DNA of 8,852 nt from a virus (Duplodnaviria > Heunggongvirae > Uroviricota > Caudoviricetes): the IMG/VR virus record IMGVR_UViG_2609459804_000013; one strand, written 5' to 3'. Shown piece after piece: positions 5,043-8,556 of this stretch (position 1 is its first letter; each line of letters starts with the position of its first letter). Under the pieces are notes generated by a model that worked only from the letters and a program-made list of their open reading frames with translations, made no database searches and was not told the DNA's origin. The position numbers and the translations under genes were made by a program.

Positions 5043-6980
5043 GTGACTCTTAAACGGGCCTGCTCCCTGCTGACGGTGAAATCCTTCAGTGAGGATGAGC
5101 GGGTGATCACCGGGATTGCGTCAACGCCTTCTCCGGATCGGGATGGTGACATCCTGGAGCCGGAGGGCGCGGAGTTTGGCAGTGCGATCCCGTTTCTCTG
5201 GCAGCATGACCATTCCCGCCCGGTGGGGCAGTGTACGGTGCGCCGGGTCAGCGAAGGGCTGGAAATCACGGCAACACTGGCGAAGCCCGTGCCGGATATG
5301 CCATCGCAACTGGCTGCCCGGCTGGATGAGGCCTGGGCGGCCATTAAGACCGGGCTGGTCAGGGGGCTGTCCGTGGGCTTCCGTCCTCATGAATACACCT
5401 TTCTGGACGGAGGCGGACTGCATTTTCTGCGCTGGGAACTGATGGAGGTGTCTGCCGTCACCGTGCCCGCGAATGCGGAATGCACCATCCGGACCATTAA
5501 ATCTTACGACCGCCAGTTTTCTGCCGCGTCCGGCAACCGGAAACCGGTGGTGAAAATCGCATCTTCTGCCGGCGCTGCGGCACAGTCAACAACCGTTTTT
5601 CATAAGGAAAAGACCATAATGAATATTGGCGAACAGATTAAAAGTTTTGAAAACAAGCGTGCAGCGCTGGCAGCCTCCCTTGAGGAGGTCATGACCAAAG
5701 CCGCAGAGGAAGGGCGCACGCTGGATGTGGAGGAGGAAGAGCATTACGACAACACCGCAGCGGAAATCCGTCAGGTGGATGCGCACCTGAAGCGTCTGCG
5801 TGAACTGGAAGCCGGTAAGGCCGCCACGGCACAGCCGGTGAAACAGGCCGGTAACGGGAATGTGGCCGCGGTGGCTTCTGCGCCGGTGATCCGTGTGGAG
5901 CAGAAACTGGATAAGGGGATTGGTTTCGCACGTTTTGCCAAATCGCTGGCTGCGGCTAAAGGTGTCCGCTCTGAAGCCCTGGAAGTGGCCCGTCGTCAGT
6001 ATCCGGATGACAGTCGTCTGCATCATGTCCTGAAATCGGCAGTGGGCGCGGGGACCACCACGGATCCGCAGTGGGCAGGCAGCCTGTCTGAATATCAGGA
6101 ATACGCACAGGACTTTATTGATTACCTGCGTCCTCAGACCATTATCGGGCGATTTGGTCAGGGCGGGATCCCTGCACTTCGTCAGGTGCCGTTCAATATC
6201 CGTGTGCACGCCCAGGTGTCCGGCGGTGCTGCCGGCTGGGTGGGTGAGGGTAAGGCAAAACCCCTGACGAAGTTTGATTTTGAATCCATCACCTTCAGTC
6301 ATGCGAAGGTGTCGGCCATTGCGGTACTGACGGAAGAATTGATCCGTTTTTCCAGTCCGGCTGCTGATGCACTGGTCCGTAATGCGCTGGCGGAAGCGGT
6401 GGTGGCGCGTCTGGATACAGACTTTGTGGACCCGAAAAAAGCGGCGGTGGCAGATGTCTCCCCGGCGTCCATCACCCATGATGTGAAGGGCACGGCATCA
6501 AGCGGTAACCCGGATGCGGATGCAGAGGCGGCGTTTGGACAGTTTGTGGCAGCAAACCTGCAGCCCACTGGTGCTGTCTGGCTGATGTCCAGCACCAATG
6601 CCCTGGCGCTGTCCATGCGTAAAAATGCGCTGGGTCAGAAAGAATACCCGGACATGACCCTGCTGGGTGGCTCCTTCCAGGGGCTGCCGGTGATTGTCTC
6701 CCAGTACGTGGGTGACCAGCTGGTGCTGGTGAATGCCCCGGATATTTATCTGGCGGATGACGGCGGCGTGGCAGTGGATATGTCCCGCGAGGCATCACTG
6801 GAAATGCAGTCTGAGCCGACCGGCGACAGTACCACGCCGTCGCCGGTGGAGCTGGTTTCCATGTTCCAGACAGGCAGCGTGGCCATCCGTGCGGAGCGCT
6901 GGATCAACTGGCGTCGTCGCCGTACCGCGGCGGTGGCGGTGATCACCGGAGTGAACTACGGCAGTGCGTCCGGCGGCTGA
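5043..6980 (+). CDS. Fusion protein: HK97-family prohead protease (Peptidase S78/U35) N-terminal domain + coiled-coil scaffold-like (delta-like) linker + HK97-fold major capsid protein
   Basis: GTG start with AGGAGG ribosome-binding site 5 nt upstream. Residues about 10-150 (ERVITGIASTPSPDRDGDILEPEGAEF...LWQHDHSRPVGQ...LSVGF...EVSAVTVPAN) match the prohead protease pattern. Residues about 190-265 are Ala/Glu-rich coiled coil (NIGEQIKSFENKRAALAASLEEV...LKRLRELEAGKA). The C-terminal about 350 aa resemble HK97-type capsid proteins (...FNIRVHAQVSGGAAGWVGEGKAKP...FSHAKVSAIAVLTEELIRFS...). Confidence 0.85.
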   Translation: MTLKRACSLLTVKSFSEDERVITGIASTPSPDRDGDILEPEGAEFGSAIPFLWQHDHSRPVGQCTVRRVSEGLEITATLAKPVPDMPSQLAARLDEAWAAIKTGLVRGLSVGFRPHEYTFLDGGGLHFLRWELMEVSAVTVPANAECTIRTIKSYDRQFSAASGNRKPVVKIASSAGAAAQSTTVFHKEKTIMNIGEQIKSFENKRAALAASLEEVMTKAAEEGRTLDVEEEEHYDNTAAEIRQVDAHLKRLRELEAGKAATAQPVKQAGNGNVAAVASAPVIRVEQKLDKGIGFARFAKSLAAAKGVRSEALEVARRQYPDDSRLHHVLKSAVGAGTTTDPQWAGSLSEYQEYAQDFIDYLRPQTIIGRFGQGGIPALRQVPFNIRVHAQVSGGAAGWVGEGKAKPLTKFDFESITFSHAKVSAIAVLTEELIRFSSPAADALVRNALAEAVVARLDTDFVDPKKAAVADVSPASITHDVKGTASSGNPDADAEAAFGQFVAANLQPTGAVWLMSSTNALALSMRKNALGQKEYPDMTLLGGSFQGLPVIVSQYVGDQLVLVNAPDIYLADDGGVAVDMSREASLEMQSEPTGDSTTPSPVELVSMFQTGSVAIRAERWINWRRRRTAAVAVITGVNYGSASGG

Positions 6981-6995
6981 GTCTGATAAGGAGGA

Positions 6996-7015
6996 CGGGA
7001 GGTGTGCGCCTCCCG
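6996..7015 (+). other. Perfect 7-bp stem hairpin (CGGGAGG-tgtgcg-CCTCCCG) immediately after the capsid gene stop; possible RNA stability or processing element, or a weak terminator without a U-tract
   Basis: Inverted repeat read directly from the sequence, 16 nt downstream of the capsid TGA (6978-6980). Confidence 0.3.
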
Positions 7016-7024
7016 TAACAGGTT

Positions 7025-7246
7025 ATGGCAAAGATCCGATATCTGCATGGTACGCATGATGCCCGGGTCGGGGATATCCGTGATGTGGCACAGCCGTGTG
7101 CGGAGGTGCTGGTTCGCCTGGGAAAGGCGGAGTACATCACGGTGCGACGTCCGGCAGGTCAGAAAAAGAAACGTGATGCGGAGCATGGCGAATGTGGAAC
7201 CTTTTACGGCGAACCCGAAAAAACCAGAAATCAGGACGTGACGTAA
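7025..7246 (+). CDS. Hypothetical small ORF (73 aa) between the capsid and portal genes, overlapping the portal start by about 55 nt
   Basis: ATG at 7025; first about 45 residues look protein-like (MAKIRYLHGTHDARVGDIRDVAQPCAEVLVRLGKAEYITVRRPAGQKKKRDAE). No close ribosome-binding site (AAGGAGGA lies about 30 nt upstream). Could be a small head protein or a spurious ORF. Confidence 0.25.
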   Translation: MAKIRYLHGTHDARVGDIRDVAQPCAEVLVRLGKAEYITVRRPAGQKKKRDAEHGECGTFYGEPEKTRNQDVT

Positions 7247-8556
7247 GAGAGGCGGGCTGGACCAGCCTGTTTCAGGCGGTGGCTGAGCCCTTTGCCGGTG
7301 CCTGGCAGCAGGGCGTGAAAACCGATCCGGAAAGTGTCCTCTCCTTTCATGCGGTGTTTTCGTGCATTTCGCTGATATCCCAGGATATCGCCAAAATGCG
7401 GCTGCGTCTTATGCAGACGGATGCGCATGGGATACGCAGGGAAACGCGCCGGGGGGATATTGCCCGCCTCTGTCGTCGTCCCAACGCCCAGCAGAACCGC
7501 ATCCAGTTTTTTGAACTGTGGCTGAACGCCAAACTGCGTCACGGCAATACGGTGGTGCTGAAAATCCGTAATGCCCGGGGGCAGATCAAAGAACTGCGTA
7601 TTCTGGACTGGAGCCGGGTTGAACCTCTGGTGGCGGATGACGGCGAGGTGTTCTACCGCATCACGCCGGACCGGAACTGCGGGATCACGGAGGCGGTGAC
7701 GGTGCCTGCCCGGGAAGTGATCCACGACCGGTTTAACTGTTTTTTTCATCCGCTTATAGGATTGCCGCCGGTGTATGCCGCCGGGCTGGCGGCCATGCAG
7801 GGGCATCATATTCAGGAAAATTCGACGTCTTTTTTCAGAAATGGCGGCAGGCCGTCCGGGGTGATTGAGATCCCCGGCAGTATTACGGAAGAAAATGCGA
7901 AAAAACTGAAGAGCAACTGGGACAGCGGGTATACCGGCGAAAATGCGGGGAAAACGGCCATTTTGAGCAACGGGGCAAAATACAACCCCACGACGTTTTC
8001 ACCGGTGGATGCGCAGACGGTGGAACAACTGAAGATGACCGCTGAAATTGTCTGTTCGGTGTTCCGTGTCCCGGCCTACAAGATTGGCGTTGGCCAGCCA
8101 CCTTCCAGTGACAACGTGGAGGCGCTGGAGCAGCAGTATTATTCCCAGTGCCTGCAGACGCTGATTGAGTCCATTGAACTGTTACTGGATGAGGCGCTGG
8201 AAACGGGGGAAAACGAGAGTACGGAGTTTGACGTCACCACGCTGCTGAGAATGGACAGCGAACGGCGCATGAAAACGCTGGGTGAGTCGGTGAAAAATAC
8301 GCTTCTCACGCCCAATGAGGCCCGTAAACGTGAGAACCTGCCGCCCCTTGCGGGAGGTGATGCACTGTATCTTCAGCAGCAGAACTACAGTCTGGAGGCG
8401 CTGTCCCGTCGTGATGCCCGTGAGGATCCGTTCGCGTCGACCGGGAAAACGGCCTTAGCGCAACCGCCTGACAGCGCATCTGACGGTAATAAGGCAATCA
8501 CTGAAACAGAGCATGATGCGGTGAAGGCGATGTTCAGGGGGATTCTGAAAAAATGA
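7192..8556 (+). CDS. Portal protein (HK97-family Phage_portal)
   Basis: GGAG ribosome-binding site 9 nt upstream of ATG 7192. Conserved blocks comparable to the HK97 portal: ESVLSFHAVFSCISLISQDIAKMRL near the N-terminus and FFRNGGRPSGVIEIPGSITEENAKKLKSNW in the core. Length 454 aa is typical. Confidence 0.9.
   Translation: MWNLLRRTRKNQKSGRDVREAGWTSLFQAVAEPFAGAWQQGVKTDPESVLSFHAVFSCISLISQDIAKMRLRLMQTDAHGIRRETRRGDIARLCRRPNAQQNRIQFFELWLNAKLRHGNTVVLKIRNARGQIKELRILDWSRVEPLVADDGEVFYRITPDRNCGITEAVTVPAREVIHDRFNCFFHPLIGLPPVYAAGLAAMQGHHIQENSTSFFRNGGRPSGVIEIPGSITEENAKKLKSNWDSGYTGENAGKTAILSNGAKYNPTTFSPVDAQTVEQLKMTAEIVCSVFRVPAYKIGVGQPPSSDNVEALEQQYYSQCLQTLIESIELLLDEALETGENESTEFDVTTLLRMDSERRMKTLGESVKNTLLTPNEARKRENLPPLAGGDALYLQQQNYSLEALSRRDAREDPFASTGKTALAQPPDSASDGNKAITETEHDAVKAMFRGILKK

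Follow-up and report, generated by a model that had tools for sequence, protein, structure and literature searches.

The DNA considered here, hereafter the window, is the whole 8,852-nucleotide (nt) stretch of the IMG/VR virus record IMGVR_UViG_2609459804_000013, and corresponds to the lysis-to-head part, 8.85 kb in length, of the late region of a lambdoid prophage of Escherichia coli. At the heart of this region, an open reading frame (ORF) of 645 codons (5043–6980) is read as joining an S78 prohead protease, whose activity is predicted, a disordered linker, a helical delta/scaffold segment and a capsid protein of the HK97 fold, and lies between the large terminase gene and the portal gene (7192–8556). 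This arrangement is an old, stable and lineage-typical permutation of the HK97 module, which defines a large lineage; as such, it is ordinary, and it is already known and annotated in isolated phages. Taken together with the mechanism proposed below, the window very probably carries a head-assembly module that is ordinary for its lineage, a large and old one of HK97-like temperate siphophages. The sole point that is potentially new, and still a prediction, is a conserved nested start at Met193, from which the gene probably also yields a delta-capsid protein of 453 amino acids (aa) without the protease. Unless stated otherwise, all features are on the strand shown.

The 645-codon ORF, encoding a protein of 69.0 kDa, begins at a GTG codon with the Shine-Dalgarno (SD) sequence AGGAGG 5 nt upstream, both being read directly from the sequence (5032–5045), and an equivalent start is chosen in relatives by the Prokaryotic Genome Annotation Pipeline (PGAP) and by RefSeq. 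An earlier note on this DNA had described it as fusing a protease, a coiled-coil delta/scaffold segment and a capsid protein, a description on which Pfam, profile alignment to the HK97 protease gp4, AlphaFold and Foldseek agree; the coordinates and sizes it gave to this ORF and to that of the portal (454 codons) are confirmed as well. In Pfam, Peptidase_S78 (PF04586) matches residues 48–153 with 34.1 bits for a gathering cut-off of 21, and Phage_capsid (PF05065) matches residues 386–635 with 52.5 bits for a cut-off of 24.2, and phrog_617 covers the protein over its full length (E 2e-261). For the protease domain (residues 1–150; 5043–5492), an hhalign search with a profile of 18 homologues of the 645-aa protein aligned residues 5–157 to HK97 gp4 with 97.2% probability (E 3.4e-11), where H55 and S110 fall on H65 and S114, the catalytic residues of gp4. 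H55 and S110 are invariant in the 18 homologues, down to 36% identity. This invariance, together with the alignment to the two gp4 residues, speaks against the domain being an inactive relic used only in scaffolding or targeting, with maturation performed by another protease; such a relic would be in keeping with the modest Pfam score of the S78 match (34 bits) and with catalysis that is predicted only, but the head modules of relatives, including those of phages BP-4795, 2851, JLK-2012 and PAJU2, have no annotated gene for a separate scaffold or for another protease, and this alternative is regarded as very improbable.

In the AlphaFold model of the 645-aa protein (mean predicted local distance difference test of 71), a beta-rich N-terminal domain is followed by a disordered linker (residues 143–193), by two long helices (195–222 and 229–261) and by a C-terminal domain. 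The two predicted helices make up the delta/scaffold-like segment (residues 195–261; 5625–5825), which precedes the capsid core (residues ~386–640; 6198–6962). Foldseek matched the C-terminal domain to the capsid proteins of Bxb1 (E 9e-15), HK97 (E 4e-11) and D3, the matches ranging from E 1e-14 to 1e-10. When the 645-aa protein was compared by sequence with solved structures, the sole match was a weak one to the Bxb1 capsid protein (E 0.0017), and no solved structure for any member of the lineage was found among them. Of note, two distant homologues of about 1090 aa (P0123 and P0133) carry an extra N-terminal region of some 440 residues ahead of the protease-delta-capsid part, and this extension contains an AAA+ ATPase-like Walker motif, GPPGTGKT.

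Regarding gene order, the portal gene does lie downstream of the capsid gene, as the earlier note had it: Phage_portal (PF04860) matches residues 54–382 of the 454-aa protein with 271 bits, and the protein is 27% identical to HK97 gp3 (BLASTP, E 2e-25). The canonical position of the portal gene, between the large terminase gene (TerL) and the protease gene, is thus not the one it occupies in the window. The same order, namely the small terminase gene (TerS), TerL, the fusion, a 73-aa ORF, the portal gene and a post-portal ORF, is found in all of the 83 close loci, i.e., 80 IMG/VR contigs, JLK-2012, vB_EcoS-569R3 and E. coli SCU-104. By megablast, the window matches 495 phage records, the best of them with 93–96% nt identity across about 90% of its length and belonging to phages converting for Shiga toxin (Stx) 1a, 2a or 2c as well as to Escherichia phage JLK-2012; with the Stx-phage relatives JLK-2012 and BP-4795, its identity is about 95%. 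Of 5426 complete E. coli genomes, 1255 contain the segment 5043–8556, in up to 7 copies per genome. The order which the earlier note took to be unusual thus turns out to be common in a well-known phage group, to which the long-tailed Stx-converting phages belong. The fusion protein is encoded in 117 phage records, including those of BP-4795, 2851, YYZ-2008, 1717, Salmonella phage FSL SP-016, Pseudomonas phages PAJU2 and IME307, and phages of Burkholderia, Ralstonia and Moraxella. In the annotated records of the isolated phages BP-4795, 2851, JLK-2012 and PAJU2 the order is that of the window, and in GenBank the note to ORF003 of PAJU2 reads “prohead protease fused capsid protein.” Literature searches for gene order or protease-capsid fusions in Stx phages returned nothing specific.

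Beyond these close relatives, the fusion protein had 1199 matches at E <= 1e-30 among the 1.84 billion cluster representatives searched; since about 135 of the best 150 (38–54% identity) are full-length matches, fusion is the norm of the family. When one genome per species was scanned, a divergent set of 80 loci with 38–77% identity, spanning several phyla, was obtained, where neighbouring genes were located by iterated hidden Markov models for TerL, portal and fusion. Their hosts belong to the Enterobacterales, Pseudomonas, Rhizobiales, Rhodobacterales, Burkholderiales and Xanthomonadales, and further loci lie in metagenome-assembled genomes assigned to the Flavobacteriaceae, Phycisphaerae, Actinomycetales and Clostridia. 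In every divergent locus whose contig reaches the neighbours, TerL, protease/capsid and portal follow one another on one strand, without exception, and the portal gene is 3' of the capsid gene in the window as in each of the 163 related loci extending to the two genes. No close relative with the canonical HK97 order was found in the locus scans. Of the two explanations offered in the earlier note, a distinct head-gene lineage is borne out by this invariance across the 83 close loci and, where the contig reaches, the 80 divergent ones, and a module rearrangement as a local event fails for want of a single exception in either set.

The window itself is not free of defects, which affect its terminase genes. 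That the large terminase gene (3319–4979) is followed by the fusion ORF stands as to order; the gene is, however, not intact, and a terminator-like hairpin (5004–5021) with a T-run, detected by consensus scan only (5004–5029), lies in between, two details in which the sequence departs from the description in the earlier note. Relative to all relatives, a 1-nt deletion near 4775 (GAGGG-GTA vs GAGGGAGTA in the alignment) splits TerL into two ORFs of 494 and 65 codons (3319–4803 and 4782–4979), over which the Pfam domains TerL_ATPase and TerL_nuclease are distributed, where relatives have a single ORF of 553 codons (1662 nt). The deletion truncates the nuclease domain, whose C-terminal part is lost from the main frame. 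In an intact relative, TerL is homologous to HK97 gp2 (E 1e-12). TerS (2766–3322), with Pfam Terminase_2 on its N-terminal part, is likewise out of frame: the window has two pieces (2766–3107 and 3059–3322) instead of the one 564-nt ORF of relatives, tblastn places residues 1–97 and 80–187 in different frames, and indels in a variable region at about 2990–3060 amount to a net frameshift, the whole resembling a mosaic of two alleles, first one like that of locus L003 and then one like that of locus L037. With both genes frameshifted, this copy looks packaging-defective unless the frameshifts are sequencing errors; in other words, decay of the prophage or errors in the sequence would account for them, and the terminase genes suggest a copy that cannot package DNA on its own. 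Such frameshift-type defects, being signs of an imperfect sequence or prophage, would be the one argument for regarding the order or the fusion as peculiar to the window, e.g., through a stop codon lost to sequencing error or a recent move of the portal gene. The fusion and portal ORFs are nonetheless intact, and thousands of independent sequences, among them those of isolated phages and of members of distant phyla, show identical architecture and order. On these matching sequences, a sequencing artefact behind the fusion and a local rearrangement behind the portal position were both rejected, and the probability left to this explanation is negligible.

Within the fusion ORF, the linker separating the protease from the helical segment is highly variable in amino acids, yet its last residue, immediately ahead of a conserved helix of the type “(N/K)(I/T)AEQI,” is an invariant Met. 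In the window, this residue is Met193, encoded by an in-frame ATG (5619–5621) with an SD-like AAGGA (5604–5608) ahead of it; the two are proposed as a nested start (5604–5621), the product of which would be 453 aa long with a mass of 48.2 kDa. Of the 69 loci where the fusion is read as one ORF, with identities reaching down to 38%, 64 have ATG at the junction, 2 GTG, 2 TTG and 1 CTG, i.e., one of ATG, GTG and TTG is used as junction codon in 68 of 69. When paired with the 16S ribosomal RNA tail, the 18 nt upstream of the junction give a mean duplex energy of -7.0 kcal/mol vs -2.8 kcal/mol at the 909 other in-frame ATG codons of the same ORFs, and a free energy <= -5 is attained by 84% of junction starts vs 18% of the other in-frame ATGs. 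Many members have a textbook SD, AAGGAGG, 7–9 nt upstream of the junction, and in PAJU2 a GGAGG precedes the junction ATG by 8 nt. The SD core occurs in all three codon registers, 5–11 nt from the start codon, and the six codons ahead of the junction start encode 60 distinct hexapeptides; with a linker so variable, this speaks for a constraint on the RNA and not on the protein.

The same junction is where protease and capsid genes part when they are not fused. In 12 loci they are separate ORFs, and in most of these the capsid ORF begins exactly at the junction. In three loci (L129, L148 and L161, junction at ~7570–7630), the unfused ORFs are in the same frame and are split by a single TAA within or next to the SD; in two of them (L129 and L148) the sequence is TAAGGA, against AAAGGA in the fused members from enterobacteria, so that a change of one base fuses or separates the two genes. 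Five stand-alone homologues in the library of representatives begin at query residues 193–196. A conserved in-frame internal start with its ribosome-binding site, as a nested gene would have it, is thus present. On this basis, the ORF is held with moderate confidence to be a nested two-product gene, where the internal start would yield a protease-free delta-capsid protein, the full-length product would deliver protease in sub-stoichiometric amount, and a change of TAA to AAA or AAG would toggle the fusion. No description of such a nested two-product gene was found in the searchable literature, most older papers on Stx phages and PAJU2 lying outside its reach.

In the lineage of the window, the protease-capsid block sits ahead of the portal gene instead of behind it, and the protease gene has usually lost its stop codon, with protease, delta/scaffold and capsid read as one 645-codon ORF. 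The mechanism proposed for this lineage is as follows. The full-length 69-kDa protein would co-assemble into the procapsid by way of its capsid and delta parts, and its incorporation as a capsid subunit would place the protease inside the shell, facing inward. Most subunits would be supplied by the internally initiated 48-kDa delta-capsid protein, and the protease would then cut off itself and the delta segment to give the mature capsid protein. If internal initiation occurs, the subunits it yields would be protease-free, and the protease would be sub-stoichiometric as in HK97. In lambda C/Nu3, Mu I/Z and herpesvirus UL26/UL26.5, a long protease-bearing product and a shorter in-frame internal product set the ratio of protease to scaffold. 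The C-terminal part shared by the two products is, in those systems, a scaffold, with the capsid gene separate, whereas in the window it would consist of delta and capsid, the second product being predicted.

The main rival to this nested-gene mechanism is that only the 645-aa polypeptide is made, each subunit carrying its own protease and cleaving it off along with the delta segment after assembly, and that a former start of the capsid gene has left its Met and SD behind at the junction. The intact single ORF with a strong SD at its GTG start fits this view, as do the fused form being the majority state and the literature on actinobacteriophage fusions, which describes a single fused protein; since fused and unfused forms differ by as little as one base, leftovers are also plausible. 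A leftover start signal would, however, be expected to decay, and the start codon and SD are kept down to 38% identity, within a freely varying linker and in three registers. Moreover, an accessible SD and ATG inside an mRNA normally initiate translation to some extent. On balance, production of the fusion protein alone is deemed rather unlikely.

Several points nonetheless weigh against the nested-gene mechanism and the module as read here. The profile of the capsid part does not match HK97 gp5 significantly (E 0.22), for which reason its assignment rests on Pfam and fold, and the alignment is too weak for the HK97 cross-link residues K169, N356 and E363 to be assigned in it. The difference in SD strength between junction and other ATGs (Mann-Whitney p ~1e-25) is inflated by the relatedness of the 69 loci. 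In the enterobacterial clade to which the window belongs, the internal SD is just AAGGA with a 10-nt spacing (-6.2 kcal/mol), i.e., weaker than in alphaproteobacterial members. The start signal could also be preserved solely by lineages switching repeatedly from one state to the other, and would then be irrelevant in the fused state. Lastly, no data from N-terminal sequencing, mass spectrometry or ribosome profiling were found for any member, so that self-processing, the site of cleavage and initiation at the internal start are all predictions.

Compared with known systems, the window is closest to BP-4795, 2851, YYZ-2008, 1717 and JLK-2012 (genera Marienburgvirus and Pankowvirus), where the order, namely HNH, TerS, TerL, the 645-aa fusion, the 73-aa ORF, portal, post-portal ORF and connectors, is that of the window, and where the fusion protein is 98.6–99.5% identical to its own; the connector genes downstream in relatives are HK97-like. 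From these Stx/lambdoid relatives the window differs by its frameshifted TerS and TerL, and the form of the portal gene (G5 or G6, see below) varies; otherwise, it is a member of the group. PAJU2 (Detrevirus) has TerS, TerL, the fusion (48% identical over its full length), small ORFs, the portal gene and an overlapping ORF in the same succession, but its host is a Pseudomonas and two small ORFs instead of one separate its capsid and portal genes. With HK97 gp1–gp5, the window shares the families of TerL (gp2), portal (gp3) and protease (gp4) as well as the HK97 capsid fold, and in both a helical delta segment at the N-terminus of the capsid protein stands in place of a separate scaffold. In HK97, however, the order is TerS, TerL, portal, gp4 and gp5, and a separate gene encodes each of protease and capsid, the two being in different frames with 2 nt between them; in the window, the portal gene comes after the capsid gene, protease and capsid form one ORF, and the capsid profile is without significant match to gp5. 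Protease-capsid fusions are also recorded elsewhere in the literature on cultured phages, i.e., as “major capsid and protease fusion proteins” in actinobacteriophage clusters AU, AM, BI, DJ, CC and others, and as fused capsid-protease genes in the RcC phages of Rhodobacter capsulatus. As described, these resemble the window in having protease, scaffold and capsid in one gene. According to the Giantsbane preprint, cluster AU shares the structural gene order of Arthrobacter phages, which starts with terminase and portal.

That the capsid gene is followed by the portal gene holds as an order, although two things went unmentioned in the earlier note, namely a conserved 73-codon ORF between them (7025–7246; phrog_829, E 3.6e-38) and the “split” form of the portal gene. 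The 73-codon ORF is present in 83 of 83 close loci, overlaps the start of the portal gene by 55 nt and has no match in a Pfam scan; distant relatives likewise leave a gap of 150–600 nt between capsid and portal genes. Immediately 3' of the capsid stop codon, there is a GC-rich stem-loop, GGGAGG-tgtgcg-CCTCCC (6997–7014). This hairpin and the one ahead of the fusion gene (5004–5029) may be compared with the putative terminators annotated after the portal and capsid genes of HK97.

The split form of the portal gene becomes apparent against PHROG 2271, a portal profile of 859 positions, of which the 454-aa portal protein covers 1–451, the next ORF resuming at 455. The 3' end of the gene (8537–8556) holds a G5 tract (8537–8541), lying 12 nt ahead of the portal stop, an A6 run (8548–8553) and a TGA overlapping the next ATG (8553–8555), and the translation of the post-portal ORF, of which the first 100 codons (8553–8852) precede the edge of the window, corresponds to positions 455–554 of phrog_2271. 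A comparison drawn on loci L001–L083, L165 and L166 found G5 in 40 loci, with a 454-aa portal and a separate ORF at an ATGA overlap as in the window, and G6 in 27 loci, with a single ORF of ~860 codons; G5 and G6 both occur on the same flanking haplotypes. The portal is split in BP-4795 and fused in 2851, and PGAP labels the portal/post-portal region “frameshifted” in the closest genome. Possible explanations are a -1 slippage at A6-TGA or at the G run, by which both products might arise, a recurrent homopolymer switching, the mere existence of two viable alleles, or sequencing error. The post-portal protein (13471–14694 in locus L001) has a coiled-coil start and 54-aa tandem repeats (IPVPRDGRDYDPEVL...ADGKSITPDDVRPMLEQMVKEAVSH), and is 407–461 aa long in relatives; its homologues in JLK-2012 and BP-4795 match no Pfam family significantly, a C-terminal match to CBM_5_12 being sub-threshold. 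At the post-portal position of PAJU2, an ORF of unknown relatedness overlaps the portal stop.

Upstream of the terminase genes, the window comprises the Rz/Rz1 genes (267–845), followed by two cargo-like genes between the lysis and packaging modules. The first (1396–1737) encodes a lipoprotein with a TonB-like C-terminal region, called “TonB family protein” in RefSeq and “Rz-like spanin” in PHROG, and the second, on the opposite strand (1869–2069), is a YlcI/YnfO (DUF3950) gene. The packaging module is headed by an HNH endonuclease gene (2111–2476; Pfam HNH PF01844, E 4.8e-7), the position of which is identical in BP-4795, JLK-2012 and SCU-104.

As regards its significance, the finding is chiefly of use for calibration: the order once termed non-canonical is the norm of one of the commonest head modules of E. 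coli prophages, carried by about a quarter of complete genomes and by many Shiga-toxin phages, and it should therefore not be flagged as a rearrangement. Should the internal start be used, a small fraction of the capsid subunits would carry the protease covalently, which would be a simple solution to the encapsidation of the protease, other than the targeting peptide found at the C-terminus of HK97 gp4. The gene would then be under-annotated in thousands of genomes, with one product recorded instead of two, and the nested start would matter, if modestly, to specialists of phage assembly.

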